Notes under the pieces: generated by a model
Told to the model about the DNA's origin: nothing
The model's input: only the letters and a program-made list of their open reading frames with translations
Databases searched by the model: none
Program-made: the position numbers and the translations under genes
In this document: one piece after another, positions 835 through 46,300 of the stretch
Position numbering within the stretch: position 1 is the first letter of the stretch
How the letters are laid out: each line of letters opens with the position of its first letter
Assembly (NCBI RefSeq): GCF_053078305.1
Contig: NZ_CP166879.1
Length of the DNA: 64,000 bases
Strand: one strand, 5' to 3'

Positions 835-1552
835 TATGTCGCATCAGGAACGTCTGATCAGGCGGGTCAGGAAACTGCTGGAGCTGAGCCGTAATAACAG
901 CAATGCCCATGAGGCCGGGCTGGCGCTTGCAAGGGCGCAACAGCTGATGGCGAAACACGGTATCACGGAGCAGGATGCCGGACTTTCTTCGGTGCAGACC
1001 TCTTCATCACAGGGGGCACCTTCTGATGCTGAAAAAGTTCCGGCGTGGATGTTTCGTCTGGTCATGGTGGTGACACAGACATTTGGCTGCCGGGCGTATT
1101 ACGACTGGCGGGCGGTGCCCGGAGGCCGGTATCGCCGGTGTGTGACGTTTTACGGTTTCAGTGAACGTCCTCAGGTGGCGGCTTATGCGTTTGATGTTCT
1201 GTGCCGTCAGCTAAGGGAAGCAACGGATGCGTATCTTCGTACACAGAGCCGGAGACTGAAACTGAGCACCCGTCGTGCCCGGGCGGCTCAGTTTCGTGAT
1301 GGCTGGGTTCAGGGGATTCGTCAGGTGGTGATGCCATTCAGTGTGACAGAAGAGGAAAGTCGGCTGATGCGTCTCTGGATGGAGCAGCAGGATATGGTGA
1401 CGGTGGACTCCCGTGAGATGAAAGCCTGTCGCGGCGGTGACCTGGCCCGCTGGCAGGGGTATGAGGCCGGGAAAAATGCCTCACTGCATCATGGTGTGGG
1501 GGAGAGTGCCCGACAGGTGGTGCCGGGTCTGATGATACGGGAGGCGTCATGA
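824..1552 (+). CDS. DUF2786-like domain protein
   Basis: N-terminal ERLIRRVRKLLELSRNNSNAHEAGLALARAQQLMAKHGI resembles the DUF2786 helical motif (from memory). In-frame ATGs at 809, 818, 824, 827 and 836; 824 chosen because of GAGGGGG at 811-817. Confidence 0.5.
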   Translation: MMSDMSHQERLIRRVRKLLELSRNNSNAHEAGLALARAQQLMAKHGITEQDAGLSSVQTSSSQGAPSDAEKVPAWMFRLVMVVTQTFGCRAYYDWRAVPGGRYRRCVTFYGFSERPQVAAYAFDVLCRQLREATDAYLRTQSRRLKLSTRRARAAQFRDGWVQGIRQVVMPFSVTEEESRLMRLWMEQQDMVTVDSREMKACRGGDLARWQGYEAGKNASLHHGVGESARQVVPGLMIREAS

Positions 1553-2157
1553 ATAACAGCTTGTCTCAGGCAACCAACGGTCTGCTGATGCAACTGGTGA
1601 TGGACCTCAAGAGCGGCTACCTGCGTCGCTGCGAATCTCTGGGGCTGGCCCGGGAGGAAATGCAGATGCTGCAGGGACTGACCATTGAGGAAATTCATTA
1701 CCTGTCAAACTCTGAAGTGTCGGTTATCCGGCTGGACATTAATCATGAAAACCTGCTGCGTATGCTGCAGCAGGCCCGGACGGAGCAGAAACGTCTGCAG
1801 CGCATTGACCGGGCACTGGCGCTGGGAGGCTCCATTGAACTGATGGCGTTTTACTTTGGACTTTCCAGTGTGGATGTGGCAGCGCGCCGTCGCATTGCCG
1901 GTATTGATGTTCGCCCGGGACGTGGCATCACACTGAGTGATGAGGAAAGTGCAGAGCTGTGGCGTTTATGGCAGAAGAGCGGCATCACAGATGTGGAAAG
2001 TGCGGACGGACTGGATGTCATGATGCTGGCAGCTGAGCAAATGAATATCCCGCTGACGGCGGTATGGCATGCAGTGAGGGGATGGCATCAGGGAACTGCG
2101 GGGTTTAATGATGTATCGGCCAGTCGCCGGAAACTGAACCGGGAAAAAGCAGAATGA
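1549..2157 (+). CDS. ICE/pathogenicity-island replication-associated protein (DUF2857 / STY4526-YPO1902-like)
   Basis: ATGA overlap with the upstream gene. Motifs RIDRALALGGSIELMAFYFGLSSVDVAARRR and EESAELWRLWQ match my recollection of this family; unverified. Confidence 0.5.
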   Translation: MNNSLSQATNGLLMQLVMDLKSGYLRRCESLGLAREEMQMLQGLTIEEIHYLSNSEVSVIRLDINHENLLRMLQQARTEQKRLQRIDRALALGGSIELMAFYFGLSSVDVAARRRIAGIDVRPGRGITLSDEESAELWRLWQKSGITDVESADGLDVMMLAAEQMNIPLTAVWHAVRGWHQGTAGFNDVSASRRKLNREKAE

Positions 2158-3995: not shown

Positions 3996-4571
3996 ATGAC
4001 ATTACCCGTAGACAGCCTGATTGCGTACACGCTGGAAAAAATGCAAGAGCGGATAGTGCAGAAAGGCCGACAACAGGACGGAAAAATACAAAGCGGACTG
4101 CTGTTTACCGGAAATGTGCATGATGCCATTCCGCGTCGACTGCTTCTGGATACTCGACTTTCTCCGCTGGATAAGATGGCGTGGATGATGATTCGGCTGT
4201 ATGCACAGAATAATGAAGGTGCAGTTTTCCCCACATATGACGAACTGCAACTGCAGCTTGCTTCCCCGGGGAAAGGAAAAGCCTCCAGGGAGACTGTCAG
4301 CCGGGTGCTGCTGATGCTGCGGATCACGGGCTGGCTGAGTCTGTGCAAACGGGTGCGTGATGAGAAAGGGCGGGTACGGGGCAATATTTATGCCCAGCAC
4401 GATGAACCGGTGACGTGCCGGGATGCTGAAATACTGGATCCACGTTATCTGGATATGGTGGCAGATGCCTGTATGAGCCGGAACCGGACCATAAGTCAGA
4501 CGGCCCGGGATATTCTGTGCGAAATAAAAAATGATCCGGGGATGCGTCATTATCACAGCCATATCAGTTAA
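3996..4571 (+). CDS. winged-helix replication-initiator-like protein (STY4528-type island replication protein)
   Basis: RBS AAAGGAAAAG. The central segment LSPLDKMAWMMIRLYA...FPTYDELQLQL...SRETVSRVLLMLRITGWL looks like a wHTH DnaD/Rep-type fold. Family name from memory. Confidence 0.5.
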   Translation: MTLPVDSLIAYTLEKMQERIVQKGRQQDGKIQSGLLFTGNVHDAIPRRLLLDTRLSPLDKMAWMMIRLYAQNNEGAVFPTYDELQLQLASPGKGKASRETVSRVLLMLRITGWLSLCKRVRDEKGRVRGNIYAQHDEPVTCRDAEILDPRYLDMVADACMSRNRTISQTARDILCEIKNDPGMRHYHSHIS

Positions 4572-4610
4572 CTGGAAGCCCGGATAGGGAGTGCCCAGAC
4601 ACCGGGACAG

Positions 4611-5240
4611 ATGGCGGCCCGTCAGCGGGTGACTGAGGACCGAATGCAGCCGGGTTCGGAAACCGAACCGGGGGTAGAAACACAGAGTTCGGTATTGAAA
4701 ATGCTGAGTTCGGATTCCGAACTCAGTGAAAAACAGGGGCAAAAAATACTGAGTTCGGATTCCGAACCATCAGAAAAATCAGAAGGTTATCACAGAGTTC
4801 GGAAACCGAACCATTACGTACGTAATATCACACACAGTGTGATTAAAAACACGTACGTATTGCCTGAAGCGCTGACAGGGCAAATCAGGGAGGAGGAGGC
4901 CATTATGCTGACCAGTCAGTTGCAGGCGCTGCCGGAAGAACTGGCGCAGGGGGTTCTGGAAAGTCTGTCAGGGATGCTGGGCAGCCACTCGCTGCAGAAT
5001 CCTGTGGGCTGGTTGCTTGCAGTGCTGAAGCGAGCCCGGGAGGGAAATTTTTATCCGCCGAAGCAGAAACAACGTGTTGTTGTGCCAGCCTCCGTACTGG
5101 CAGGAGAAAGGGGGCGAGCTACTGCGCAATCAGTTTCATCGGGGAAACGTACGGAACCGATTTCAGCAGAACGTCTGAGTGGCATTGTGGCTGGATTACG
5201 GGCCTCGCTGCGCAGATGTTCTGCGATGAGACCTGAGTGA
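4611..5240 (+). CDS. hypothetical protein; the 5' third contains palindromic iterons, C-terminus NPVGWLLAVLKRAREGNF
   Basis: Track ORF. The low-complexity repeat KMLSSDSELSEK/KILSSDSEPSEK is caused by the DNA palindromes. The coding status of the 5' part is uncertain. Confidence 0.4.
   Translation: MAARQRVTEDRMQPGSETEPGVETQSSVLKMLSSDSELSEKQGQKILSSDSEPSEKSEGYHRVRKPNHYVRNITHSVIKNTYVLPEALTGQIREEEAIMLTSQLQALPEELAQGVLESLSGMLGSHSLQNPVGWLLAVLKRAREGNFYPPKQKQRVVVPASVLAGERGRATAQSVSSGKRTEPISAERLSGIVAGLRASLRRCSAMRPE
4654..4811. repeat. four dyad-symmetric iterons GTTCGGAWWCCGAAC plus one half-site
   Basis: Cores at 4654-4668, 4708-4722 (23-bp perfect palindrome 4704-4726), 4753-4767 and 4797-4811. Half-site at 4687-4692. 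Further palindromes TTACGTACGTAA and ATCACAC-ACA-GTGTGAT follow at 4814-4845. Confidence 0.8.
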
Positions 5241-5351
5241 TTGCGATACGGGCTATGTTCGCGGGAATAAAAATCAACCAGTGCCGCCAGCGACTGGTTA
5301 AAAAGAAAACAGAATCGGGAACTGGTCAGGTGAAACAAGGTGGTAAATAGC

Positions 5352-5582
5352 ATGCAGAAATACAAACAGGAAAGTCTGAGTGCAGCCATGAAAGAAAGTG
5401 GCCTGTTGATCGCTAAAATTTGTGCCTGCGTGATTGCCGGAGTGGTGGTTATCTGGGGACTGGTGACAGGCACAGAGACCCTGCTCACTGCGCTGAAAAC
5501 AATGCACGAACAGTACGATAACAGTATGTGTTATATCGTATGTGCCACAGGGTGGTTTTTCCTGGTGTTAAGTAACTGGCTG
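5352..5582 (+). pseudogene. 5' part of a membrane-protein gene interrupted by the IS66-family element
   Basis: ATG 5352 after AAGGTGG. The reading frame continues exactly at 8104 once 5583..8103 (IS plus one TSD copy) is removed. Confidence 0.65.
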
Positions 5583-5612
5583 GTAAGCGTCAACGGAGCA
5601 CCGTATTGACGC

Positions 5613-7205
5613 TTATTTATTGGTGAGTACTACGTTCCATGGCAAGAGTTCATCAACTCGGTTGGAAGGCCATTCCGGCAGTACGCTCAGGATATGGCGC
5701 AGATACGCTTCCGGATCGATACCGTTCAGACGGCAGGTGCCGATCAGCCCGTACAACAGTGCTCCACGCTCGCCGCCGTGATCGCTGCCAAAGAACATAA
5801 AGTTTTTCTTTCCGAGACAGACTGCACGAAGCGCTCTTTCCGCAGCATTATTATCCGCCTCCGCCAGACCGTCATCACTGTAATAACAGAGGGCATCCCA
5901 CTGATTCAGTACATAGCTGAACGCTTCGCCCAGTCTGGATTTTTTCGACAGCGTACCATTCTTCTCCACCATCCATTCATGCAGCGACGTCAGTAACACT
6001 TTGCTTCGCTGCTGCCTGACGGAAAGACGCTCTGACTCCGGTAATCCCCGTATTTCATCCTCGATGGCGTACAGTTCACTGATTCGCTTCAGGGCTTCTT
6101 CTGCCTTCGCACTTTTGCTGCTGATGTATACATCGTGGATTTTTCGCCGGGCATGGGCCCAGCACGCAACTTCTGTCAGTGCACCACCTTCACGTTCTGC
6201 ACTGAACAACCTGTCGTAACCTGTGAACGCATCCGCCTGCAGGATACCCCGGAAGGGGCGGAGGTGTTGCTCCGGGTGTTTCCCCTGCCGGTTCGGCGAG
6301 TACGCGAACCAGACCGCTGGAGGAGATGACGAACCCACATTGCGATCATCCCGGACATACGTCCAGATACGCCCTGTTTTCGCCTTTTTCTGACCCGGTG
6401 CCAGTACCTTTACCGGTGTGTCATCAGTGTGAACCTTGCGGGTGTTCATTACATAACGGTACAGGGCATCATTCACCGGTGTCATTAACTGGCAGCACGC
6501 GTCAACCCAGTTGGAGAGTAAGGCCCGGCTCAGTTCGACACCCTTGCGGGCAAAGATTTCACTCTGACGATACAGTGGCAGATGTTCGCAGTATTTTCCC
6601 GTTAACACGCGGGCAAGTAATCCGGGGCCCGCGATACCACGCTCTATCGGGCGGGACGGCGCCGGTGCTTCAACGATGCAGTCACATTTTGTACAGGCTT
6701 TTTTTACCCGTTCTGTGCGGATCACTTTCAGGGCGCTGCTCACCAGTTCCAGTTGTTCTGCACTGACTTCCCCCAGATAATCCAGCTCACCGCCACACTC
6801 CGGGCAACAGCTTTCTTCAGACTCCAGACGGTGTATTTCACGGGGAAGGTGTGCCGGTAACGGACGACGATGGCGCGACTGTCGCAACTGGCGGGGAACC
6901 TGTGGATCGTCTTCCCGCCCACTGTAACGATCGCTGTCCTGTTCGCGTTGTTTCAGCAGGGCCTCAGCCTGTTCAACTTCACGACGCAGTTTTTCAGAAC
7001 GGGTACCGAACAGCATCCGGCGCAGTTTTTCTATCTGAGCCCGCAGATGTTCTATTTCCCGTTCATCTTCTTCGATCTTTTCTTCGGCACGTGCCAGTGC
7101 AGAGCGCAGGAAGGCCTCCGTCTCTTCAACCAGACTCAGTTGCTGGTCTTTCTGACGGAGCTGGCTTTCCAGTTCTGCAATGCGAATGAGGTATTTCTGA
7201 CTCAT
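5613..7205 (-). CDS. tnpC: IS66-family transposase TnpC
   Basis: 530 aa with an N-terminal coiled coil, zinc-finger CPECGGEL...CTKCDC, and the conserved core typical of IS66 Orf3. Confidence 0.9.
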   Translation of the reverse strand: MSQKYLIRIAELESQLRQKDQQLSLVEETEAFLRSALARAEEKIEEDEREIEHLRAQIEKLRRMLFGTRSEKLRREVEQAEALLKQREQDSDRYSGREDDPQVPRQLRQSRHRRPLPAHLPREIHRLESEESCCPECGGELDYLGEVSAEQLELVSSALKVIRTERVKKACTKCDCIVEAPAPSRPIERGIAGPGLLARVLTGKYCEHLPLYRQSEIFARKGVELSRALLSNWVDACCQLMTPVNDALYRYVMNTRKVHTDDTPVKVLAPGQKKAKTGRIWTYVRDDRNVGSSSPPAVWFAYSPNRQGKHPEQHLRPFRGILQADAFTGYDRLFSAEREGGALTEVACWAHARRKIHDVYISSKSAKAEEALKRISELYAIEDEIRGLPESERLSVRQQRSKVLLTSLHEWMVEKNGTLSKKSRLGEAFSYVLNQWDALCYYSDDGLAEADNNAAERALRAVCLGKKNFMFFGSDHGGERGALLYGLIGTCRLNGIDPEAYLRHILSVLPEWPSNRVDELLPWNVVLTNK

Positions 7206-7235
7206 GACCGTTTTTATAATGCGGTCAGGATTTTT

Positions 7236-7586
7236 TTACAACATTGTCAGTGAGTTACGGCGGGATGTTTTTGGCTGACGCCAGTCCAGCTTATCGAGGA
7301 GCATTGCCAGTTGCGAGCGGGTAATGGATACCTTGCCGTCACGTACCGCAGGCCAGATAAACTGGCCTTCCTCCAGGCGTTTAGTGAACAGGCACAGACC
7401 ATCAGCATCAGCCCAAAGAATTTTAACGGTGTCACCCCGTCGGCCACGGAAGATAAACAGGTGACCGGAGAAGGGATTATCATTCAGCACATGTTGTACC
7501 TGTTCTCCCAGTCCGTTGAAGGATTTACGCATATCGGTAACGCCGGCAACGAGCCAGATACGGGTACCTGATGGGAGTGAGATCAT
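7236..7586 (-). CDS. tnpB: IS66 accessory protein TnpB (Orf2)
   Basis: 116 aa. RIWLVAGVTDMRKSFNGL...IFRGRRGDTVKILWADADGLCLF is the hallmark IS66 Orf2 sequence. Confidence 0.9.
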   Translation of the reverse strand: MISLPSGTRIWLVAGVTDMRKSFNGLGEQVQHVLNDNPFSGHLFIFRGRRGDTVKILWADADGLCLFTKRLEEGQFIWPAVRDGKVSITRSQLAMLLDKLDWRQPKTSRRNSLTML

Positions 7587-8008
7587 CTTCCCCTCCCGGT
7601 CAGTTCACGGATCAACACCGTGAGCAGCTCTGGCGATGGATTTTCCAGCGTCATGTTACCGTGACGGAATTCCACCTTGCAGGAGCTGGCACTGACTCTG
7701 GTCTGAGAGGTAGTGGATAAAGATGGCGCAATGGCCACCACAGGTTCTTTCTGCTCATCCGGCGTTATTTCTACAGGTAATAATTCAACGCCAGTGTCAG
7801 AAGAGGTCGTTACCGGAAGACGCCGCGAAACACGCCCTTCGTTCTGCCAGAGCCTGAGCCATTTGAACAGGAGGTTATCATTGATATCGTGTTCCCGGGC
7901 GATACGGGCAACAGAGGCTCCTGGTTGCAAAGCCAGTTTAACCATTTGAAGTTTAAAATTATTTGAAAATGATCTGCGGGGTTCTGCGGATAATGTTTTT
8001 TGCTCCAT
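7583..8008 (-). CDS. tnpA: IS66 accessory protein TnpA (Orf1, HTH)
   Basis: 141 aa. RRSFSNNFKLQMVKLALQPGASVARIAREHDINDNLLFKW is an HTH. 4-nt overlap with tnpB. Confidence 0.85.
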   Translation of the reverse strand: MEQKTLSAEPRRSFSNNFKLQMVKLALQPGASVARIAREHDINDNLLFKWLRLWQNEGRVSRRLPVTTSSDTGVELLPVEITPDEQKEPVVAIAPSLSTTSQTRVSASSCKVEFRHGNMTLENPSPELLTVLIRELTGRGR

Positions 8009-8103
8009 AACAGGCGTCCACTAGTTTGAAAAGGTGGGCACCTACGTTACCAATACTGGCTTAATGGCTACATACGGCAGTCGGTTTACGCTTACACTGG
8101 CTG

Positions 8104-8352
8104 TGGATCACATACAGTCTTTATAAAGCGCGTACAGGCAGTACAGTCGGAGGGGGCCTGCAATTTATGCTCCTCCTGAGTCTGCTGGCAGAATGCTTTT
8201 CATTTTTTGTGATTTTCTGGTCATTGTCTCATCTGGATATAACCGACATTCAGTTGCTCGTGATGGGGATAACAACATTAATGCTGTTTTTGTCTCTGAA
8301 CGTTAAGGTAGTAGTCATCATTAACCATGTTGCCAGTGGCAACAGTGATTAA
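8104..8352 (+). pseudogene. 3' part of the IS-interrupted membrane-protein gene
   Basis: In frame with 5352..5582 after IS removal (21 codons, then track ORF 8167..8352). The stop lies in the first unit of the 36-bp array. Confidence 0.65.
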
Positions 8353-9120
8353 AAAGCGAGCGGTGTTGCCAGTGGCAACAGAGTACAGAAAATAGTCAAT
8401 GGTGCCAGTGGCACCAGAGTACAAAAAATACTCAATGGTGCCAGTGGCACCATAGTATAAAAAATAGCCAATGGTGCCAGTGGTACCAGAGTACAAAAAA
8501 TAGCCAATGGTGCCAGTGGCACCAGAGTACAAAAAATAGCCAATGGTGCCAGTGGCACCATAGTATAAAAAATAGCCAATGGTGCCAGTGGCACCAGAGT
8601 ACAAAAAATAGCCAATGGTGCCAGTGGCACCAGAGTACAAAAAATAGCCAATGGTGCCAGTGGCACCATAGTATAAAAAATAGCCAATGGTGCCAGTGGC
8701 ACCAGAGTACAAAAAATAGCCAATGGTGCCAGTGGCACCATAGTATAAAAAATAGCCAATGGTGCCAGTGGCACCAGAGTACAAAAAATAGCCAATGGTG
8801 CCAGTGGCACCATAGTATAAAAAATAGCCAATGGTGCCAGTGGCAACAGAGTACAGAAAATAGTCAATGGTGCCAGTGGCACCAGAGTACAAAAAATAGT
8901 CAATGGTGCCAGTGGCACCATAGTATAAAAAATAGCCAATGGTGCCAGTGGCAGCAGAGGTTAAAAAGCGAACAGTGCAGCCAGTGGCAGCAGAGGTTAA
9001 AAAGTGAACAGTGCTGCCAGTGGCAGCAGAGATTAAAAAATGAGCAGTGCTGCCAGTGGCAACAGAGGTTAAAAAGTGAGCGGTGTTGCCAGTGGCAACA
9101 GCGATTAAAAAATAAGCGGC
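8325..9120. repeat. tandem array of 22 x 36-bp units, each with a 15-bp palindrome NNTGCCAGTGGCANN and an A-tract
   Basis: The CCAGTGG core recurs at exactly 8333+36k for k=0..21. Central units alternate two subtypes (..CAGAGTACAAAAAATAG.. and ..CATAGTATAAAAAATAG..); outer units are more diverged. Confidence 0.95.
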
Positions 9121-9192
9121 GTTAAATGTATATTCTGCCTGATTTGTTTTTTTGTTGTCGGTAATACGCAACCTGCGGACTATCTTCTGGTC

Positions 9193-9921
9193 ATGAAATC
9201 ATTCGGAGTAAACACAATGCCCCAGGAGAAAACCGGAGAAGTCAGAAAATCAGAACAAGTTGGTGCTCTGCAGTCATCGCTGACTATTGCCCTTCATACC
9301 CGATATGCGATCCGTCTCTGGGAGGGACGCAGGAATAATCAGAAGGAAGAAAAACAGGAAAAGCGGCCTGACATCATCAGTATGCCCAGGGCTATTGCGT
9401 TTGCGGGTCAGGCAACCAGAGATTCAGCCAGGGATAATCCTTATGCAGATATGATGTTAGTCAGGCTGGAAAATGCCCTGACGAAGGCAACTGAAACAAT
9501 TGAAAAGCATCTTGCGTGGCTTGACGGGATCCTTAAAAACCTGCCGGGACAGATCTCCCTTTCTGATATTAAATCCTCTTCGCCGGTAAATATTGGCGTG
9601 TACAGTAGTTCTCCGGTCGGTTATCGATGTGTATGGCTTCTGATCGGATATGATCGACTGGTCATGAAGGTATTTCAGGTATTTCATTACGGACTTATTT
9701 CCCGCACAAAACGGGATGAGTTGCTGAATCAGGGAGGGTATGCGGTACGCAGGATTTACGGGATTATTCAAAATTATAAATCAGTCAGTGTTACACGTGC
9801 TGATATTTTGTCCGGCACAGCCCGTGGAAAGGAGGCGGTTAACCGCATGGGGGAGCCGGATCCTGACGTGATGAGCGGTAAGAAACGTTCTGTTTATTCA
9901 CCACCGGTTAAAGCGGGGTGA
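9193..9921 (+). CDS. ICE conserved protein (PFL_4669/DUF3158-like)
   Basis: Position immediately upstream of topB with a 4-nt overlap. LHTRYAIRLWEGR matches my recollection of this ICE family; unverified. Alternative start at 9217. Confidence 0.45.
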   Translation: MKSFGVNTMPQEKTGEVRKSEQVGALQSSLTIALHTRYAIRLWEGRRNNQKEEKQEKRPDIISMPRAIAFAGQATRDSARDNPYADMMLVRLENALTKATETIEKHLAWLDGILKNLPGQISLSDIKSSSPVNIGVYSSSPVGYRCVWLLIGYDRLVMKVFQVFHYGLISRTKRDELLNQGGYAVRRIYGIIQNYKSVSVTRADILSGTARGKEAVNRMGEPDPDVMSGKKRSVYSPPVKAG

Positions 9922-11966
9922 GTATGCAACTCTTTCTGTGTGAAAAACCTTCTCAGGCGAAAGATATCGCCCGTGAACTGGCGCTCAGTAAGCGGGGCGA
10001 CGGATACATCGGAGATGACAATATTGCTGTCACCTGGGCGATAGGACACCTGCTGGAACTGGCTGAGCCGGAAGCTTACGGTGAACAGTTCGGTTCCCCA
10101 TGGCGTTCTGATGTGTTGCCGCTGATACCGGAACAATGGCAGATGGTGGTGAAGCCGAAGGTGAAAAAACAACTTATTGTGATCCGGGGGCTGTTAAAAC
10201 GCGCTTCTGAAGTGGTTATTGCCACAGATGCCGATCGTGAAGGAGAAGTGATAGCCAGAGAGTTGCTGGAGTACTGTCAGTACAGAGGGCGTGTCAGGCG
10301 TCTGTGGTTATCTGCACTGGATGAGGCCAGTATCAGGAAGGCGCTGAATAATATTCTCCCGGGCGAACAGACTGCGCTTCTCAGTGAAGCCGGTAAGGGG
10401 CGTGCCCGGGCTGACTGGCTGACAGGGATGAATCTGACCCGGTTGTATACCCTGAAGGCACGGGAACGTGGAATTTCTGGGGTTTTGTCAGTGGGCCGGG
10501 TGCAGACACCCACGCTGGCAATGGTGGTCAGACGGGATCAGGAGATCGCCACATTTGTGCCGGTTTCCTGGTGGCAGGTGATTGTCTGGCTGGAAAAGGA
10601 GGGGCTCCGTTTCCGCAGTAACTGGGTGGCAGCTGAGCAGTACTGCGATGATGAGGGACGTTGTGTGAATGTGCAGGCGGCCGGTGCTGTTCTCGGTCTG
10701 TGCCGTCAGCAGTCCTCTGCTGTTGTACAGGATGTTGTACAGAAGAGGGAGAAAACACCGCCACCTTTGTGTTTTTCGCTGGGAACGTTGCAGGACGCCT
10801 GTTCCCGGAAGTTTGGCATGGGGGCTCAGACCGTTCTGGATATCGCACAGTCCCTTTATGAGACTCACAAAGCAACAACTTATCCCAGGACAGACTGTGG
10901 TTATCTGCCTGCCTCGATGCATGAGGAGAGTTCTGAAGTGCTTGAGGCTGTCGGGCGTTCAGATCCGTCCGTGCTTCCACAACTGGCTGAACTGGAATCA
11001 GGACGGGTATCCCGTATCTGGAATGATAAAAAAATTACGGCTCACCATGCCATTATTCCGACCCGGCAGTTTTTTGACCTCAGCTTACTGAACGGTGATG
11101 AACTGAAGGTATATCAACTGATTCGTCAGCACTATCTGGCACAGTTTCTGCCGGAGCAGGAAGCCGATGTTACTGAGGCAACATTTGTGATTGGGGGGCA
11201 GTTATTCCGTTCCCGCGGAAGAGTGAATGTGATTATCGGGTGGAAACAGTTATTTCCACCGGAAAATCATGCAGATGAAGAAAAGCCTGACAGTGATGAA
11301 AGTGGAAACATATTGCCCCCTTTGATAAAGGGAGAACTCTGTGCTCTGGATGGTGCTGAACAGAAGGAGCTGAAAACCGTACCTCCCCGTCCTTTTACTG
11401 AAGGCAGTCTTATTACTGCGATGAAGAATGCTTCGTCTGGTGTAACGGATCCGGTGCTGAAAAAGATCCTGAGGGATAATGCGGGACTGGGAACGGAAGC
11501 CACACGCGCGGGGATCCTGGAAACGTTATTTGCGCGCAACTATATTGAGAGAGCGGGAAAACATATCCGTTCCACGCAACTGGGAAGAGAACTGGTGGCG
11601 GCATTGCCGGACTCTCTGACAAATCCGGGTATGACGGCTTTATGGGAACAGGCGCTGGATGATGTTGCCCGGGGGAAAATCTCACTGGAGGCGTTTATGG
11701 AGAAACAGCATCAGTGGATCAGGCACCTGGTGTTATCCGGACGTAACCAGACGGTTAATCTGTCAGTGGAATCAGGTCCTTCATGTCCACTCTGTAACGG
11801 TCCGACGGTGAAACGGAAGGGAAAAAGCGGTTTTTTCTGGGGATGCTCCCGTTATCCCGACTGCAGGGGAATTGCTGGTGAGCAGGGAAACAGCAGGGGC
11901 AGGAAAAGAAAAATTAATTTTTCTCATAAACAAAAATCTGGTGATGTCGGAGACAAACTGAATTAA
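9918..11966 (+). CDS. topB: DNA topoisomerase III
   Basis: TOPRIM N-terminus MQLFLCEKPSQAKDIA, DADREGE motif, active-site TTYPRTDC, C-terminal zinc ribbon CPLCNG...CSRYPDC. Confidence 0.9.
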   Translation: MSMQLFLCEKPSQAKDIARELALSKRGDGYIGDDNIAVTWAIGHLLELAEPEAYGEQFGSPWRSDVLPLIPEQWQMVVKPKVKKQLIVIRGLLKRASEVVIATDADREGEVIARELLEYCQYRGRVRRLWLSALDEASIRKALNNILPGEQTALLSEAGKGRARADWLTGMNLTRLYTLKARERGISGVLSVGRVQTPTLAMVVRRDQEIATFVPVSWWQVIVWLEKEGLRFRSNWVAAEQYCDDEGRCVNVQAAGAVLGLCRQQSSAVVQDVVQKREKTPPPLCFSLGTLQDACSRKFGMGAQTVLDIAQSLYETHKATTYPRTDCGYLPASMHEESSEVLEAVGRSDPSVLPQLAELESGRVSRIWNDKKITAHHAIIPTRQFFDLSLLNGDELKVYQLIRQHYLAQFLPEQEADVTEATFVIGGQLFRSRGRVNVIIGWKQLFPPENHADEEKPDSDESGNILPPLIKGELCALDGAEQKELKTVPPRPFTEGSLITAMKNASSGVTDPVLKKILRDNAGLGTEATRAGILETLFARNYIERAGKHIRSTQLGRELVAALPDSLTNPGMTALWEQALDDVARGKISLEAFMEKQHQWIRHLVLSGRNQTVNLSVESGPSCPLCNGPTVKRKGKSGFFWGCSRYPDCRGIAGEQGNSRGRKRKINFSHKQKSGDVGDKLN

Positions 11967-12644: not shown

Positions 12645-13112
12645 ATGACTGCAAATACTTCTTCTGCAAACGCTAAAACTGAGTACTTCAATCTGACACT
12701 GAAAGGCCTGGGGTATCTCAGCAACATTCGTCAGGTTAATCATCAGAACGGGACATTTCTCAGTTGTGTTGTGAATGCACTGAGTGGTCCGACGGACAGC
12801 CCGTCCTATGTGCGTTTTGATGTGACGGTTGCCGGTAAAGAGGCAACTTCCCTGATTGCCCGCTGCCAGAAAGCGGTGGATGAAGATCGCAAGGTGCTGA
12901 TTGGTTTTACCATGAGCAACCCCTCTACTGACATTTTTACCCTTAACCGGGGTGAACATGCCGGTGAGCAACGCGTCAGTCTGAAAGCCCGCCTGATCAA
13001 GGTGGAGTGGATCAAAATAGGCCAGGACATGGTTTATAAGACTGAAAAATCGGAATCCATACCGCCACAGAATGGCAATACCCCGCGGGAATACGCAGAA
13101 AATTCTTTCTGA
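12645..13112 (+). CDS. DUF3577 / STY4534-like ICE replication-associated protein
   Basis: YFNLTLKGLGYLSNIRQV... matches my recollection of this family. Located upstream of ssb, as in related islands. Confidence 0.5.
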   Translation: MTANTSSANAKTEYFNLTLKGLGYLSNIRQVNHQNGTFLSCVVNALSGPTDSPSYVRFDVTVAGKEATSLIARCQKAVDEDRKVLIGFTMSNPSTDIFTLNRGEHAGEQRVSLKARLIKVEWIKIGQDMVYKTEKSESIPPQNGNTPREYAENSF

Positions 13113-13421: not shown

Positions 13422-13982
13422 ATGGCATCGCGTGGAGTGAATAAAGTCATACTGATTGGTCATCTGGGACAGGATCCGGAAATCCGTTATTTCCCCAACG
13501 GCGGAGGTGCAGTGGCAAATCTGACGCTGGCCACCACTGATACCTGGCGTGATAAACAGAGCGGTGAAATGAAGGAACACACTGAATGGCACCGTGTTGT
13601 GATTTACGGAAAACTGGCTGAGATTGCCGGTGAATACCTTCGTAAAGGTTCACAGGTGTATATTGAAGGTCAGTTAAGAACCCGGAAGTGGTTCGATCAG
13701 CAGAATGGTGTTGATCGTTATTCCACGGAAGTTGTTGTGAGTGTCAATGGTACCCTGCAGATGCTGGGGTCTCCGCGTCAGCAGCAGGGGGGTGGAAATG
13801 TTTCATCTGCTCCTGCTCAGGGAGGATGGGGACAACCACCACAAAATGCACAACAATCAACGGGAAAAAACGGTCAGGCTTCCTCAGGAAGCGGGGGAAT
13901 GCCGCCGATGGACTTTGACGATGATATCCCCTTTATGGGGCGTGGGTATGGCGTTGAACGACGGATTATCCATGTCATCTGA
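13422..13982 (+). CDS. ssb: single-stranded DNA-binding protein with a 15-aa extension after the DDDIPF tip
   Basis: OB-fold N-terminus [28 protein letters not shown]...TEWHRVV, Gly/Gln-rich linker, MDFDDDIPF followed by [15 protein letters not shown]. Confidence 0.9.
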
Positions 13983-37714: not shown

Positions 37715-39233
37715 ATGACCACAAATAACTATCTGGAATATTTTCTGACTCTGCTGGGCTGGGTGGTGAATAACGGTCTGTGGAATGTGTTGATCAGCAC
37801 AGGACTGTTTGCCCTGCCACTGGCATTCAGGATCATCGGGATCTGGCTGAAAGTCAGGGAAGAAGGTGCGGATGAGGGAAACAAAGGGATGCTTTCCCTG
37901 CCGCGTATTGAGCATGTTCTCTATGGTGCTTTTTTTGTGATGATATCCTGCTGTGTTCCTCTGGTACAGGTGACGCTGGATACGCTGTCATTCGATAAAT
38001 CCAGGGCACAGACCTGTGGGGTATGGACACCTGAAGAGCCCGGAGAGACGGGGTACAGTGGGGTGATCAGCAGTATAGGGGATCAGACTGCTGCAGCCCC
38101 GGTATGGTGGGTGGTGGTTCATAAATTGTCGAAAGGTGTCACCCAGGCGGCAGTGGCTTCGATTCCGTGCCGGCCTGATTTGCGCCAGTTGCGTTTTGAG
38201 ATCCAGCGAACGTTTATAGAAAACAGGGCACTTGCTGATGAGCTGCAGGACTTTATGAACGACTGTTATTCACTGGCACTGTATGTGGAAACAGCGTGAT
38301 CAGGGGCAGAGTAAAGATAAAAAAGTGCTTGATGATATCTCCTGGATAGGGAGCGCCACATTCATGCAGGGGGATTACGGGACGCTGCAGTCAAAGATGC
38401 CGCGGGCTGCGTTCCCGTGGAATACAGCACGTGACAGCGGACGACCGGATACGGGGCGGGGAGGCTATCCGACATGCCGGGAGTGGTGGAGTGACAGTAG
38501 TGTGGGGCTGAAAAAACGGGTCATGGAGGAGGTCAGTGACCATTACTGGTTACGTCTGTCAGCTGCAATGAAGATGATTGGCAGTAGTCAGGTGGATTAT
38601 AAGGAGGAGGTGATCAAGCGTCTGGTGAGTCCGGCAAACCTGACGCTCTCTCAGGGGGGAGAGGTGTATCGTGGCTATGGTGGCAATGCAGATATGACGA
38701 CTATGAATGCGGTGGCCCGGATTGCGGGAACGGCGGGCAGTGCGGTAGCAGCACTGGGTGCGTTTCCGGCACTGGATGCAATGCGGCAGGCACTGCCGAT
38801 GGTACAGTCGATAATACTGATGGCGATTTACATCATGATACCGCTGATTCTGGCGTTTGCGGCATATGAACTGTCGACGTTAATCACACTGACGTTTGTG
38901 GTGTTTGCGGTACACTTTCTGACGTTCTGGTGGGAGCTTGCACGGTGGCTTGACAGCTGGATGCTGACGGCGCTGTACAGTTCGGATACACATACCCGGT
39001 TCAATATGATGGGATTCCAGAACACATCGGATGATCTGATAATGAATCTGGTGATGGGGACAATGTTTCTCGTCTTGCCGGCAGTGTGGCTGGGTGCGTT
39101 GTCCTGGGCTGGGGTGAATATGGGCTCTGTGGTTGGTGATACTTTTGGAAAAAGTACAAGTCATACCTTTCAAGCTGCATCAAAAAGTGGTGATCTTGCA
39201 TCTAGTGGAATTTCAAAAGGTATGAATAAATAA
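37715..39233 (+). pseudogene. traG: TraG-like (F-type TraG N-terminal domain) mating-pair protein, split into two frames
   Basis: 194-aa and 316-aa ORFs overlap at 38283-38299 in different frames. The downstream frame is open only from 38259 and ATG 38283 has no RBS. The two sum to about 510 aa, the size I recall for intact homologues. Confidence 0.5.
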
Positions 39234-43099: not shown

Positions 43100-43348
43100 T
43101 CACTCAGGATCTGATGGAGGTTTTTTACGAGAATTAAACTTATCGATCAGATTAAAAACTATCGCTGCTAGTGTTATCGATGTACCTGCTATGCACCCAA
43201 ACACAATAACTCTTATCATTTGGTGGGTCGGGAAAAAAAAGAATCCTTTTGTTAGGTAAATAAATAAAGCTCCTCCCCCCATCAAAAGAAATCCACTGAT
43301 GATACAAAAGAGGCATGCATATATGAACAATACAATGTAAGCAATCAT
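43100..43348 (-). CDS. cdiI: CdiI immunity protein (82 aa, integral membrane)
   Basis: 4-nt overlap with the cdiA stop. Hydrophobic helices IVLFIYACLFCIISGFLLMGGGALFIY and VIVFGCIAGTSITLAAIVF. Confidence 0.7.
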   Translation of the reverse strand: MIAYIVLFIYACLFCIISGFLLMGGGALFIYLTKGFFFFPTHQMIRVIVFGCIAGTSITLAAIVFNLIDKFNSRKKPPSDPE

Positions 43349-46300
43349 TTCCCCTCCTCCTTCTTCGCGCTAGAAGAGAACTGATTATTACTACTTGCTT
43401 CTTTTATATATCCACCAAGAAATTCACTACCAAAAGATCCTGTCGCATCAAATATAAATCCCGGAAACTCTTTCCCAGTAACTGAGTTTACTATTCCGGG
43501 AGCATATACTCCAAATGCTCCACCCAATCCGGCCCCGGCAGCAGCCCCTCCAATAGAGCCTGTATTTGGACCATCGGTAAAGAATGCACCACCCATCGCA
43601 ATTCCGACGTTTTGTCCGACAGTTCTCCCCGGCGCAAGCATACCCGCAATGCCTGAACTGGCACTGCTTTTCCAGTCCCAGTTTTTGTTTTCATTACCTG
43701 GCTGGCTTAAATCAAACCACTGGTAACTTCCATTGGCTATCTCCGCGACGACTCCACCACTGACCATTTTACCGACCGAAGCAGCAGGCCCCAGATACCA
43801 TGCCCCGGCAATCATTACACCATCCTGATATCCATCCACGATCACTTTCGTGATATTGGTGCTGTCCGGCATATCACCTTTCGCTATCTTATCCAGTCCA
43901 GCCTGTGTTTGTTCCGGTGTCAGATTATTGTCCACCGCGTACTTGTTCCATGATGTAGCCGCAGCAGCATTGCTTTCAAAACCATCACCGAAGCTGAGCG
44001 CATTATTCTCAACCGTCGTCTTACCTGACTGTGCTCCGGCTACCGCTGAAGCTCCCGAATCTCCCACCAGACCACCGGCCAGGCCGGCAGCAACCGTTGC
44101 CAGTGTCGAGACCGTCTGCTTCTCTGTCCCGCTCAGTTCACTCACCGGCTTACCGTACATCTGTGTGGCTATCATTCCCACCACCTCGCCGGTGGCTGCG
44201 CCTGCGGCACCAGCCAGAGCATTCTTACCCTGTGCCAGAGACAGGGCTGCATTCACTACTGCATGAGCTGCCACACGTCCCGCACCGTCCGGGGTGGTCT
44301 GTTTGATAATTTCAGCAATATACGGTGCTGCACCACCTGCCAGGGCTGCACTCAGATTACCGCCGGCCAGCCCCTGTACTGCTGCCGTTGCGGCCTGTAT
44401 CGCCTGCTGGTATTTGCCTCCCGTTCCAAAACCTGAGGCCGCCATACCGTTATTGTAGGCCCGCTGCGCCACATCCTGTTCCGTGAACGGTTTTCCTGCT
44501 GCCTCAAGCTCCTCACGGGCCTGATTCAGTGCTGCCGGGTCCCGCTTCGCTTTCTCACCAGCTATCTGGCCTTCCGTTCTGGCAATATCTGCCACCTGGT
44601 TACCAATCTCACCAATGAGCTGCGCCTGCTGCAGTCGCTGCTGCTCTTTTTCCCTGTCAAAGATGGGGGACAGCGTCTGGTTTGCATGTGCTGCGTCACG
44701 GTTCAGGTCTGCCACATCCTGTTTCTGGCTCTGCGTATCCCGGATGGTGATATTCCCGGCAGACACAGCCGACTGAGTGGTGCTTTCTGCATGGCCTTCA
44801 TGATTTGCACCAACCAGCAGATTGTTGGCCATATTTCCCGCGAACTGGCCACCGATGCTGCCGCCAGTGCTGATACCCACGCTCTGGTGTTCAACTTTGT
44901 AATCAGCACGATTTTCGATATCACGGAAGCCCAGTGTACCGGTATCCAGCCGGTTTTTATCTGCCGTTGCCGTGGACGCAATCACCGCACCGTTCAGTTG
45001 CGTATGCTGTCCGGTGGTGACATCAAACCCGCCCCTGCCGGCAAAAATCCCCGTCTGCTCCTGCACACTGTCATAGTTACTGTGCATTTTATCCCGGCTG
45101 AGGCTCACACTCGCCGAACCGCTCATGGACCCGAAAGTGAAGCTGCCTCCGGCACTGGCATTCTGCTGCTTACTGTCATAACGGTCACTGTCCTGCTCAC
45201 TGGTCAGTGTCAGATGACGACCGGCATCCACTTTCACCGTTTCACCGCCGGCCTGCACGCCGGTAAGCGTGGTGTCCCGCCCGCTGATAATGGTCAGGCG
45301 GTTTCCCGCATCCACCGTGGTTTCTGTATGGGTGGTACCGTTGCCTTTTTCACTGCCCTTACCCTGGTTTGCGCTGGCTGAAACACTGATACCCCAGCCT
45401 CCGGCCCCCACACCGATACCGACACCCACACTGCCGCCACTGGATGAGTTCTTTCCTTCCAGCTTTGACGTGTTTTCTGCTGATACCAGATTCACGTCAC
45501 GGTTTGCCTGCAGCAGAACGTTGTTCCCTGCCTTTATCTGACTGCCCTGTATCGTCAGGTCACCATCCACGTCCTTCACGCCGGAGCCGGTGGCCTGAAT
45601 ACTGAGGTTATTACCTGCGGTCAGGGCGCTGTTCTTCGCCACCGTCTGCTCTGACTGCTGTTCTGATTTCGAAGACTGGCTGCCGTAAGAGAGGCTGATA
45701 CCCACGGCATTGTTATTCTCTTTCTGGTTGCCCTGTGCTTCTGCCAGTCGTCCGGCCTGCACGGCCTGAGCCCCCGAGAGCGCGGCCTTCACCCCCTGCA
45801 GGGCTTCAAGCCGGCTGTTTCCGGCAGATTTCGCCGCCTGCACGGTCTCCACCGTCGTGTTCAGGGCGCTGCCCACTGTGCCGGACAGGGCAAGCGTCAG
45901 ACCGGAGGTTTTCTGCTCCACCGAATGCGTCTGCACATGCCGGTCTGTGACGGCGCTAATGCTGACCTCCTTACCACTGAGTGCCATGTCCCTGCCGGCA
46001 ATCAGGTCAGCACTGTTGGCGCTCAGCCGGTTACCTGCCTGAAGGGAAACATCACCGTGAACACTCCCCACCGTGCTGCCTTTCTGTGTGCTGTCTGTTG
46101 CGGTGTCCGTGACTTTCAGACTCTGGCTGCCCACACTGAATCCCACACCTCCGGAGCTCATCAGCCCGGATTTTTTCTCCTGTTTCAGGTGTGTTTCACG
46201 GTTGCTTTCTGTCAGCGTGCCGATACTCAGGTCATTTCCGGCAGCCAGGGAGACACGGTTATCCCCGGCCACACTGCTGCCCGTGACGTTCAGATTATGT

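Follow-up and report, generated by a model that had tools for sequence, protein, structure and literature searches.

Genes and features at the locus

The window, i.e., the whole 64-kb stretch of DNA that was analysed, belongs to an E. coli ICE and opens with the end of a ParB-family gene (positions 7-834, + strand). This segment codes for the C-terminal 275 amino acids of the ICE ParB protein, a homologue of BisD of ICEclc that is 99% identical to the ParB of the relative L003; for the N-terminal ParB/HTH part, which the window does not include, the sequence of relatives that are 96-99% identical was read. The ParB gene is located about 6-7 kb upstream of the array described below. A gene for a DUF2857 protein follows at 1549-2157 (+ strand; PF11198, E 1.6e-66, with a weak FlhD match). 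The BisC protein of ICEclc, the partner of BisD, is a DUF2857 protein, and the gene product is its homologue. The STY4528-family 'island replication protein' gene occupies 3996-5240 (+ strand) and is by position the orthologue of ICEclc orf96323. The family carries the NCBIfam name 'replication protein' and has no Pfam domain. NF040582 matched both halves of the window copy, which is a pseudogene: it is interrupted by an in-frame stop at 4569-4571, after codon 191, with no indel relative to the intact gene of L003.

Within the STY4528 gene, four TTCGGAwwCCGAA palindromes were found between 4655 and 4810 (no strand assigned), spaced by 54, 45 and 44 bp; a search with this motif returned 8 matches versus 0.8 expected. 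These palindromes are the second repeat set of the putative oriV of the family, and are also found in pKLC102, P. veronii and PFGI-1. The same set equals candidate bisS-3 of ICEclc, at which BisD foci were absent (PMC12409273). Further downstream, an IS66-family insertion (5583-8095, - strand), bordered by an 8-bp target duplication (5575-5582 and 8096-8103), splits an E. coli-specific 159-amino acid gene (5352-5582 and 8096-8352) whose stop codon falls in the first repeat unit of the array. Both the 159-amino acid gene and the IS66 element sit inserted upstream of the array, between it and the STY4528 gene. The product of this gene was discarded as a reader of the palindromes because it is specific to E. 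coli.

Downstream of the array, a promoter is predicted at 9155-9183 (+ strand), with a -35 TTGTCG at 9155-9160, a 17-nt spacer and a -10 GACTAT at 9178-9183. It would be the equivalent of the PinR promoter: the conserved Enterobacterales block TTGTyG...GGACTATCTCA aligns with the TTGACT -35 of the ICEclc-type PinR. A generic sigma-70 scan did not call the 9155-9183 promoter. The operon that follows is headed by a PFL_4669-family gene (9217-9921, + strand; TIGR03761, E 5e-76; PF08900, the Pfam AcaB family, E 1.7e-81), which is by position, on the gene order of L089, the orthologue of ICEclc ORF95213. An earlier note on this DNA had placed the start of the operon at 9193; an ORF does open there, but in the RefSeq relatives the start is the ATG at 9217, with the RBS GGAG at 9205-9208. 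The second gene of the operon codes for DNA topoisomerase III (9918-11966, + strand; from the RefSeq annotation of relatives, with 99-100% identity), and the same module contains a STY4534-family (DUF3577) gene (12645-13112, + strand) and a single-stranded DNA-binding protein gene (13422-13982, + strand). The array heads a stretch of some 30 kb in which the core genes are co-directional. In PDB sequence searches PFL_4669 had no match, and ParB matched only at E = 0.8.

Anatomy of the array

The array (8325-9116, no strand assigned) consists of 22 units of 36 bp, as judged by sequence reading, TRF and homologous arrays in relatives. On the + strand of the 64-kb window CCAGTGG occurs 22 times, always at 8333+36k and at no other position, and TRF reported a period of 36, 20.8 copies, 91% matches, no indels and a score of 1030. 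The 22 phased, indel-free units described in the earlier note were thereby confirmed. When up to 2 mismatches were allowed, the 11-mer core was matched 79 times, against 28.5 ± 5.5 in shuffled sequence, and no shuffle reached 79.

Each unit contains an odd-centred palindrome of 17-19 bp, with the core G[G/T/C]TGCCA-G-TGGCA[C/A/G]C, followed by an A-tract. The central units (block 8397-8936) are homogenised to GGTG..CACC, and the flanking units are of the GTTG..CAAC and GCTG..CAGC types. Covariation inside the window is limited to palindrome positions 2 and 14 (G-C, T-A, C-G). The palindrome had been described as 15 bp long and as varying always symmetrically. The dyad actually extends to 8+1+8 in most units and to 9+1+9 in the 'CAT' units, and the symmetry was overstated: a perfect 7+1+7 palindrome is present in 17 of the 22 units, and the other five, which start at 8469 (TGGTACC), 8829 (G..A), 8937 (G..G), 8973 (GCAGCCA) and 9045 (C..A), carry a single asymmetric change. 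The A5-6 tract attributed to every unit is found in 20 of them, and the remaining two have GAAAA.

The spacing of 36 bp corresponds to 3.43 helical turns. From the end of the array there are 100 bp to the ATG at 9217 and about 40 bp to the predicted -35, and the 45-bp stretch just after the array is 37% GC. A core search of the window found no further unit near ssb/topB between 9117 and 16000, the sole other exact core being at 37815, and a search for long palindromes elsewhere in 1-16 kb did not reveal a separate bisS-like pair. A CRISPR is out, as the earlier note had held, because the whole 36-bp unit repeats and there are no unique spacers.

Arrays and palindromes in related elements

The same array was present in all relatives examined. 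In E. coli elements with near-identical proteins its copy number ranged from 2 to 65 (2, 7, 11, 14, 20, 22, 28 and 65), so that the copy-number variation that the earlier note had suggested looking for in related ICEs does exist, and a recent slippage expansion limited to this isolate, which it had named as a refutation, does not apply. Given the presence in all relatives and the range of 2 to 65 copies, it is the size of the array, not its presence, that probably reflects slippage or unequal exchange. Copy number is probably set by either process together with concerted homogenisation, and the requirement appears to be limited to at least one or two sites. Spacings of 35, 37 and 73 bp were also observed among the relatives.

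In 80 enterobacterial loci the unit GTTG-NNN-N-NNN-CAAC followed by TTAAAAA, with a 36-bp period, was found ahead of the PFL_4669-family gene, with symmetric variation of its inner bases. In a scan with the anchors only (G.TG N7 CA.C), 27 of the 64 unique upstream sites had complementary bases at all three inner pairs, versus 13 of 453 background sites, and at least 8 symmetric inner classes were distinguished. With the relatives included, the maintenance of dyad symmetry, first proposed from the window, is strongly supported. The sequence of the palindrome is lineage-specific, and position and 36-bp spacing are retained. In Photorhabdus, for instance, the palindrome is TGATTAGAgTCTAATCA, and the ParB recognition helix is also divergent. 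Most species have homologous sites as 1-3 intergenic copies, and Pseudomonas has a 57-bp period. Inserted cargo leaves sites on both flanks (bisS in L086, GTTG-type sites in 11 enterobacterial loci), and additional palindrome copies distant from the PFL_4669 promoter were found in L032 and L088. At several loci, inner-triplet classes are mixed within one array. Such mixing counts against the ParB reading, since it would not be expected under a single strict specificity.

The array corresponds to the 'oriV' repeats of pKLC102 and PFGI-1

The P. aeruginosa clone C plasmid/island pKLC102 carries 16 repeats of 57 bp that have been published as a predicted 'oriV', and PFGI-1 carries 4 repeats of 46 bp as a putative oriV. 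The cores of the window (GGTGCCAGTGGCACC), of pKLC102 (GTGGTGCCACTGGCACCAC) and of PFGI-1 (AGTGTTGTGGGCCACACCACT) have in common an odd-centred GTG-TTG/GTG...CAA/CAC-CAC framework, which in PFGI-1 takes the form AGTGTTG-NNN-N-NNN-CAACACT. The core GGTGCCAsTGGCACC of the pKLC102 repeats is shared with the E. coli array and occupies the same position. In both pKLC102 and PFGI-1 the repeats occupy the slot between the STY4528-family and PFL_4669-family genes, are homogenised in the centre and vary symmetrically at the flanks, and are accompanied by a set of about four TTCGGAAnCCGAA palindromes upstream, in the STY4528 gene, all as in the window. The array differs in its 36-bp period with an A-tract spacer, versus 57 or 46 bp with a G+C-rich spacer, and in its copy number (22 here and 2-65 in E. 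coli, versus 16 in pKLC102 and 4 in PFGI-1).

By virtue of the core and position that it shares with the pKLC102 repeats, the array joins a repeat region that had already been described, with a function that was a prediction only: it is the copy, in this E. coli element, of the palindrome-repeat region found across the pKLC102/SPI-7/ICEclc family. The origin role of the pKLC102 and PFGI-1 repeats is, in the literature consulted, a prediction. The remark in the earlier note that no function was known to be described does not hold for the homologues, which have been assigned a predicted 'oriV' function in pKLC102 and PFGI-1 and a demonstrated one, BisD loading, at bisS of ICEclc.

Positional equivalence to bisS and the candidate reader

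The bisS site is the experimentally shown loading site of ICEclc BisD, a ParB-like CTP clamp (Antar et al. 2025, PMC12409273), and bisS-1 and bisS-2 of ICEclc were published as '2 kb apart' (PMC12409273). Locus L089 is of the ICEclc type and has exactly the gene order published for ICEclc. There, bisS-type palindromes follow the STY4528-like gene at a distance of 38 bp, precede the PFL_4669-family ATG by 139 bp and recur just behind ssb; 1994 bp separate the last two of these sites, in agreement with the published distance. A second ICEclc-type locus, L086, has the same layout. The slot of these sites is also the one occupied by the enterobacterial palindromes and by the pKLC102 repeats. Array and bisS are alike in their position relative to orthologous genes (downstream of the orf96323/STY4528 family, upstream of the ORF95213/PFL_4669 family) and in consisting of long odd-centred palindromes at the head of co-directional core genes, and the E. 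coli element and ICEclc both conserve a BisD-type ParB and a BisC-type DUF2857 protein. In contrast, the array palindrome is unrelated in sequence to the bisS consensus GAGCTATCCCCnGGGGATAGCTC. Among the fetched loci this pattern was matched in L086 and L089 alone, and the palindrome of the window, read directly, did not match it. Furthermore, ICEclc-type elements have 2-3 dispersed single sites, whereas the E. coli element has a tandem array.

The full-length relatives of the window ParB matched TIGR03764 (E 2e-114) and were 41% identical to the ICEclc-type ParB over 356 amino acids (E 2e-77). The CTP motifs GGNTR (GxxR) and ENxxR are kept in these full-length E. coli ICE ParB proteins.

A covariation scan of 7 conserved proteins linked the region around the ParB helix-turn-helix to the identity of the palindrome: the top 5 windows for a shared palindrome half-site, scored over non-independent pairs, were all in ParB residues 129-206, around the HTH. 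ParB accounted for 15 of the 25 top windows, in a comparison in which pairs are non-independent and ParB is the fastest-evolving protein; STY4528 windows ranked second and PFL_4669 third. Comparison of the recognition helices gave a mixed outcome, with counter-examples. In the minimal trio of L033 and L050 versus L036, recognition helix and palindrome change together, and the same helix is found with different palindromes in L023 versus L040 and in L072 versus L061. In an exclusion test we asked which protein stays near-identical between loci with different palindromes. DUF2857, STY4534, PFL_4669 and TopB were disfavoured in this way, and ParB and STY4528 were left unseparated because ParB was always the most divergent.

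The array as a candidate loading site for a ParB-type clamp

On balance, and by analogy with ICEclc, we favour the reading that the array consists of tandem, duplex, dyad-symmetric sites of the bisS/parS type, on which the ParB-family CTP clamp encoded by the element itself, the BisD homologue, binds and loads. ParB dimers would recognise each palindrome, close there as CTP clamps and then slide into the element. Together with the DUF2857 (BisC-like) protein, the clamps would switch on the transfer-competence promoters and/or, with ParA, position the excised circle. ParB binding, clamp loading and a downstream effect at the array are what we infer from this comparison. That the sites act as duplex is favoured by palindrome pair 7/9, which a hairpin with a 3-nt loop would leave unpaired and which is complementary at 48 of 64 sites versus 144 of 453 in the background, and by mismatches that show no strand bias. 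A range of 2 to 65 copies is tolerable for a loader or a centromere. The gene set is of the partition type, with ParB in the element and ParA at the island start in the relative L085, outside the span of the window. The central proposal of the earlier note, a dyad-symmetric site for a dimeric DNA-binding protein, is upheld, and the module around it is one of maintenance and regulation; among the functions the note had listed, a ParB-related, centromere-like one fits best, and an iteron-type origin lacks its usual hallmarks here.

The F plasmid sopC comprises 12 repeats of 43 bp, in each of which SopB binds an inverted repeat with 7-bp arms, and its copy number is not critical for basic function. 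Array and sopC are alike in being tandem direct repeats with, in each unit, a short inverted repeat for a ParB-family dimer (here the candidate reader), yet they have no sequence similarity. In addition, sopC lies directly downstream of sopAB, whereas the ParB gene of the array is kilobases upstream, and the ParB of the characterised homologue, unlike the sopC system, carries an extra activator domain. Antar et al. (PMC12409273) likened the BisD system to KorB-OB of RK2, in which a ParB-type clamp loaded at palindromes acts on distant promoters. Each OB site is a single 13-bp palindrome, the sites are dispersed and KorB is a repressor, whereas the E. coli sites are tandem and the homologous ICEclc system activates.

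A broader proposal, to which we give slightly less than even credence, is that the roughly 20-year-old 'oriV' annotations across the pKLC102/PAPI-1/PFGI-1/SPI-7-type ICEs denote lineage-specific bisS-type arrays for BisD-like clamps that license transfer competence, and not origins. If so, the 2-65 tandem sites of the E. coli elements would amount to a natural variation in loader dosage, and the copy number of clamp-loading sites could tune the firing frequency of the bistable transfer switch. ICEs of this family are vehicles of virulence and resistance islands in Salmonella (SPI-7), Pseudomonas (PAPI-1, pKLC102), Haemophilus and pathogenic E. coli, and the decision to excise, replicate and transfer is understood for ICEclc only. 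Because the E. coli array, the pKLC102 'oriV' repeats and ICEclc bisS are tied by position and architecture, the old annotation becomes testable as an origin, a clamp loader, or both. The elements with 2 to 65 copies offer a natural allelic series, and the lineage-specific palindrome/ParB pairs are material for studying the evolution of ParB-type specificity and the avoidance of cross-talk between co-resident elements.

Alternative readings of the array

The array could be a vegetative origin (oriV), its units serving as iteron-like sites for an initiator of the ICE, for instance the STY4528-family protein, and the excised circle would start to replicate there with help from the island's DnaB, SSB and topoisomerase. 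The region has traditionally been annotated in this way in pKLC102, PFGI-1, SPI-7 and ICEHin1056, and the array is a homologue of the published putative oriV region. The neighbours include named replication proteins, SSB, TopB and dnaB-PI, the stretch after the array is low in GC, and records list family members as circular plasmids of about 72-104 kb, one of them without a typed replicon. Moreover, pKLC102 persists as a plasmid and needs an origin somewhere, which the literature puts in these repeats. Like iteron-type origins, the array has multiple repeats beside genes named as replication proteins. However, that published assignment is itself a prediction. Iterons are direct, non-palindromic repeats of 17-22 bp at whole helical turns, whereas the units are palindromic, 36 bp long, and not on the same face of the helix. 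Such origins also have DnaA boxes and an A+T-rich unwinding element; here there is only the 45-bp stretch, and no DnaA box within about 800 bp, the nearest TTWTNCACA being at 9939 (8 boxes in the window versus 5.1 expected, not above chance). The variation in copy number between near-identical elements is unusual for iterons that set copy number, validated ParB-loading sites lie at the same position in ICEclc-type elements, and the array is intact although the STY4528 gene is a pseudogene here. An origin seems unlikely, and it would be compatible with ParB binding, the two not being mutually exclusive.

Rather improbable, in our view, is that the units are operators or upstream-activating sites through which another ICE regulator, PFL_4669 (AcaB family, by autoregulation) or STY4528, controls the adjacent promoter. 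The short distance from the array to the predicted -35, the membership of PFL_4669 in the AcaB transcription-regulator family and the second and third ranks of STY4528 and PFL_4669 in the covariation scan speak for it. AcaB is reported to have a ribbon-helix-helix-like fold and to activate a promoter of IncC plasmids. Against it, PFL_4669 proteins are 96-99% identical despite different palindromes (L017/L069, L023/L027), the extra palindrome copies of L032 and L088 are far from the PFL_4669 promoter, and InrR, the DUF3158 protein of ICEclc, when expressed alone activates none of the tested promoters.

There is a slim chance that the units act through structure, as a hairpin in the transferred ssDNA or a duplex cruciform that would be used for priming, as a single-strand promoter or as the target of a structure-specific protein. 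Each unit as ssDNA folds into a 7-8-bp stem (dG -7.4 to -8.3 kcal/mol, z about -4.5), symmetry is retained through sequence change even inside a single array, and SSB and topoisomerase genes are nearby. Nevertheless, the innermost pair, which the minimal 3-nt loop of a hairpin would keep from forming, equals the other pairs in symmetry, single mismatches have no G.T strand bias (6 versus 7) and half are of the transversion type, and arms of 7-9 bp are short for cruciform extrusion. An Rfam search gave no relevant match to the array, and the reading as a known RNA family was dropped. Intrinsic terminators were also rejected, with marginal minus-strand matches only; the T-run is displaced by 5-7 nt from the stem, so that the units would be poor terminators. 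Generic sigma-70 promoters inside the units were not above chance.

That the array codes for a minus-strand repeat protein (ORF 8278-9171, 297 amino acids, with a 12-amino acid repeat) is suggested by the one minus-strand frame that is open through the whole array and by RefSeq/PGAP CDSs over some arrays, but it can practically be dismissed, since the openness follows from composition (one stop in frame +0, none in -2, four in -1), the ORF has no Pfam domain, the annotation is inconsistent or missing among relatives, spacings are not confined to 36 bp, the sites elsewhere are few and intergenic or have the 57-bp period of Pseudomonas, and the variation between units is dyad-symmetric and not codon-patterned. 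The RefSeq CDS calls over the arrays, which bear the names 'hypothetical', 'saposin' and 'beta strand repeat-containing protein', are probably spurious.

Organization of the array and its surroundings

The window belongs to a chromosomal integrative conjugative element (ICE) from the SPI-7/PFGI-1/pKLC102 family. To the left of the array lie ParB-family, DUF2786 and DUF2857 genes, element-specific genes including an XF1762-family gene, an STY4528-family gene and an E. coli-specific 159-aa gene that adjoins the array; after it come genes for a PFL_4669-family protein (Pfam AcaB), topoisomerase III, STY4534/DUF3577, SSB, pilL2 and further products. The array (8325-9116) is made up of 22 units, each exactly 36 bp long and joined head to tail. 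The phased, indel-free arrangement described in the earlier note was borne out by CCAGTGG, whose 22 plus-strand copies in the 64-kb window all lie at 8333+36k, and by TRF (period 36, 20.8 copies, 91% matches, no indels, score 1030). Allowing two mismatches at most, the 11-mer core matched 79 times in the window, against 28.5 ± 5.5 in shuffles. The palindrome is odd-centred, G[G/T/C]TGCCA-G-TGGCA[C/A/G]C, and reaches 8+1+8 in the majority of units; some go to 9+1+9. Seventeen units are perfect, but five (starting at 8469, 8829, 8937, 8973 and 9045) have one asymmetric position, and the claim that the palindrome varies always symmetrically was too strong; among the window's units covariation occurs only at positions 2 and 14. 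An A-tract follows the palindrome in each unit; the A5-6 length ascribed to all holds for 20 and fails for two. A further exact copy of the core, TGCCAGTGGCA, the sole one outside the array (∼0.03 expected by chance in the window), lies at 37815-37825 on the minus strand within an ORF without family match (37715-38299), and lacks the outer GTTG/CAAC arms.

An IS66-family element (5583-8095; tnpA/tnpB/tnpC on the minus strand; 8-bp target duplication at 5575-5582 and 8096-8103) interrupts the 159-aa gene immediately upstream of the array, which is itself intact; none of the fetched relatives carries this element at the same site. The STY4528-family "replication protein" gene (3996-5240) has an in-frame stop at 4569-4571, after codon 191, and no indel when compared with the intact copy of the E. 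coli locus L003. This ICE copy may be decaying while its array is kept intact. At 8016-8126 (plus strand), Rfam gives a match to the AfaR small RNA that stays below threshold (43.6 bits, gathering score 100, E 8e-6); it falls mostly inside the right end of the IS66-family element, extending ∼30 bp beyond. Farther along, a 2981-aa filamentous-haemagglutinin-type protein (43345-52290, minus strand; TIGR01731 and TIGR01901) and an adjoining 579-aa ORF without family match (52843-54582, minus strand) are likely two-partner-secretion cargo of the island.

Array length varies among E. coli elements

An equivalent array occupies the equivalent place in nine E. coli elements, with 2, 7, 11, 14, 14, 20, 22, 28 and 65 units. 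The array is thus not limited to this isolate, so that the expansion private to one isolate which the earlier note would have counted against its claim does not apply, and the copy-number change that the note proposed to look for in related ICEs is documented by this 2-65-copy series. The flanking proteins are 93-100% identical among these elements, and conserved core proteins at least 96%. Individual arrays are homogenised to different symmetric variants: to GGTG..CACC in the window, L001, L002 and L092, to GCTG..CAGC in L003, and to GTTG..CAAC in L091 and L095; spacings of 35, 37 or 73 bp occur in some. We conclude that: i) array length is very labile, and ii) the units evolve in concert.

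Symmetry, position and spacing are conserved across the family

A search with the PFL_4669 protein supplied 80 Enterobacterales loci, each from a different species. Almost all contain the unit cAsT-GTTG-NNN-N-NNN-CAAC-AsTG followed by rTTAAAAA, usually in 1-5 copies and at 100-300 bp before the coding region of the PFL_4669-family gene, with a period of 36 bp, or 105-108 bp in some Pectobacterium and Xenorhabdus. The inner triplets vary symmetrically, both between loci and inside single loci (CCA/TGG, GCA/TGC, CCC/GGG, CAC/GTG, CAG/CTG, ACA/TGT, TCA/TGA and GAG/CTC). To avoid circularity, symmetry was tested with the outer anchors alone (G.TG N7 CA.C). Of the 64 unique sites found upstream, 27 had complementary bases at each of the three inner pairs; in the rest of the loci this held for 13 of 453 sites. 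Photorhabdus elements carry an unrelated palindrome, TGATTAGAgTCTAATCA, at unchanged position and 36-bp spacing. Hence dyad symmetry, position and spacing are conserved, whereas the sequence is lineage-specific, and the sites evolve symmetrically within that frame.

The periods of 36 bp (Enterobacterales), 46 bp (PFGI-1; Mavrodi et al.) and 57 bp (the family loci L084, L087 and L088) differ by ∼1 or 2 helical turns, and adjacent palindromes are always 0.38-0.43 turn (137-154 degrees) out of phase. This constant offset suggests that the geometry of adjacent bound proteins is constrained. Additional palindrome copies lie near topB or ssb in some elements (L032, L088). In eleven enterobacterial loci cargo sits at the repeat region, with GTTG-type palindromes split to both sides; 2-3.5 kb of cargo separates palindrome copies in L016, L047, L053, L054, L059-L061, L070, L074, L075 and L086. 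Accessory genes appear to have inserted into the repeat region repeatedly. The element of L004 (NZ_JBQPOM010000022.1), labelled Vagococcus sp., is essentially identical to that of Salmonella enterica L005, in proteins and array type alike; this Gram-positive label is odd, and possibly reflects contamination or mislabelling.

The array shares its position with a BisD loading site

The BisD protein of ICEclc is a ParB-like CTP clamp that loads at two 11+1+11 palindromes (bisS) 2 kb apart, then spreads ∼50 kb co-directionally with transcription, and acts together with the DUF2857 protein BisC to switch on transfer-competence promoters (Antar et al. 2025, PMC12409273). Two ICEclc-type loci, L086 and L089, were retrieved. 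The gene order of L089 is that published for ICEclc (alpA, parA, shi, bisD, bisC, orf96323, ORF95213, inrR, ssb, topoisomerase), which fixes orf96323 as STY4528 family, ORF95213 as PFL_4669/AcaB family and InrR as DUF3158 (ORF95213-inrR region, 5001-6307). In L089 one bisS-type palindrome is found 38 bp beyond the STY4528-like gene, a second precedes the PFL_4669-family ATG by 139 bp, and a third comes directly after ssb, 1994 bp from the second. TTGACT, resembling the published PinR -35, follows the second of these sites. L086 is arranged likewise, its first and second sites being separated by a cargo gene. Thus, the experimentally validated ICEclc loading site and the E. coli array share their position. 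An Enterobacterales-conserved block 3′ of the array (TTGTyG, ∼17 nt, GGACTATCTCA) can be aligned to the -35 of ICEclc-type PinR, and on this basis a promoter of the PFL_4669 operon is predicted at 9155-9160 (-35) and 9178-9183 (-10), followed by an RBS (9205-9208) and the ATG (9217). Since no DUF3158 gene separates the PFL_4669 gene from topB (9217-11966), an InrR homologue may be missing from this part of the E. coli element.

The ParB of the E. coli element matches TIGR03764 and shares 41% identity across 356 aa with the BisD-like protein of L086 (E 2e-77). GGNTR and ENxxR are conserved in it, and the GGNTR arginine is residue 95 in L086, the one mutated in BisD-R95A (Antar et al. 2025, PMC12409273). 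As readers of the palindrome, DUF2857, STY4534, PFL_4669 and TopB are disfavoured, since loci whose palindromes differ can have versions of these proteins that are 96-99% identical; ParB (79-87% between such loci) and STY4528 (86-94%) remain candidates in this pairwise exclusion. Half-site sharing rises with the identity of the recognition-helix segment inside strata of overall ParB identity. When windows were slid along seven conserved proteins, the rest of each protein being controlled for, the top five all covered ParB residues 129-206, around the HTH, and ParB supplied 15 of the top 25, in comparisons where locus pairs are non-independent and ParB is the fastest-evolving protein. L033 and L050 combine the palindrome GCTGCCACTGGCAGC with the ParB helix HNSSISRMEDA, and L036 combines GTTGACAGTGTCAAC with HSSNISRMEDT; there are counter-examples in which different palindromes accompany identical recognition helices. 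This covariation is suggestive of ParB tracking palindrome identity. We conclude that the finding is real and biologically meaningful, and that the array represents, in E. coli, a palindrome-repeat region already described for the family. Its most likely role, proposed with moderate confidence by analogy with ICEclc, is that of a multi-copy set of bisS/parS-type sites at which the BisD-like ParB would load.

Alternative functions of the repeats

The main rival, that the array is a vegetative origin (oriV), has a literature of its own. The "oriV" repeats of pKLC102 are published as 16 x 57 bp; in NC_019202 the STY4528-family and PFL_4669-family genes flank them, and every unit contains GTGGTGCCACTGGCACCAC, the core of the E. 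coli array, with symmetric variants in the flank units. For PFGI-1 a putative oriV was placed "immediately upstream of PFL_4669"; it has 4 x 46-bp repeats with AGTGTTGTGGGCCACACCACT and four copies of the palindrome TTCGGAATCCGAA (Mavrodi et al.). The window shares this four-palindrome set: TTCGGAwwCCGAA occurs four times, 44-54 bp apart, in STY4528-family coding sequence here (4655-4810) and in L084 (5004-5101) and L087 (5266-5407), where it encodes SSDSE-type repeats; these palindromes are conserved from E. coli to Pseudomonas. The motif is that of ICEclc "bisS-3", which failed to recruit BisD (Antar et al. 2025, PMC12409273). Putative oriVs of like kind were described for ICEHin1056, SPI-7 and PAPI-1 (Juhas et al.). 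In the literature located, origin function was predicted from sequence rather than shown. The earlier note knew of no described function, but the region had already been published as a putative oriV in pKLC102 and PFGI-1; the present data connect that old annotation with the new bisS biology. Because pKLC102 exists as a plasmid and family members are on record as circles of 70-100 kb, an origin, perhaps an unconventional one, is retained as a rival, and ParB binding would be compatible with it. We consider an origin unlikely: there is no DnaA box within ∼800 bp of the array, and the count of such boxes in the window is at chance level; the only A+T-rich DNA nearby is a single 45-bp stretch of 37% GC; the units are palindromic and 3.43 helical turns apart; and copy number is far from constant among the E. 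coli elements.

That each unit acts as a hairpin in single-stranded DNA is argued against, although it can fold as such with a dG of -7.4 to -8.3 kcal/mol. Pair 7/9, which would be a loop position in any real hairpin, is equally symmetric (48 of 64 sites, against 144 of 453 in the background), G.T strand bias is absent among the single mismatches (6 vs 7), half of which are transversion-type, and the repeat units match no RNA family. These patterns favour a dimeric protein reading duplex DNA. Quasipalindromes undergo template-switch "correction", which could add symmetry at weakly read positions and might explain mixed inner classes within single arrays.

A 297-aa minus-strand ORF over the array was rejected as a gene, being a by-product of the stop-free repeat (one stop in frame +0, none in -2, four in -1), and a domain search with it found no domain. 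RefSeq treats the arrays inconsistently: some have no call, while others are labelled "hypothetical", "saposin" or "beta strand repeat-containing protein". The 65-unit array of L095 (NZ_AP042483.1, 1514-3955) is annotated as an 813-aa protein of the last kind and the 20-unit array of L002 (6022-6648) as "saposin"; both are probably spurious CDS calls over non-coding repeats.
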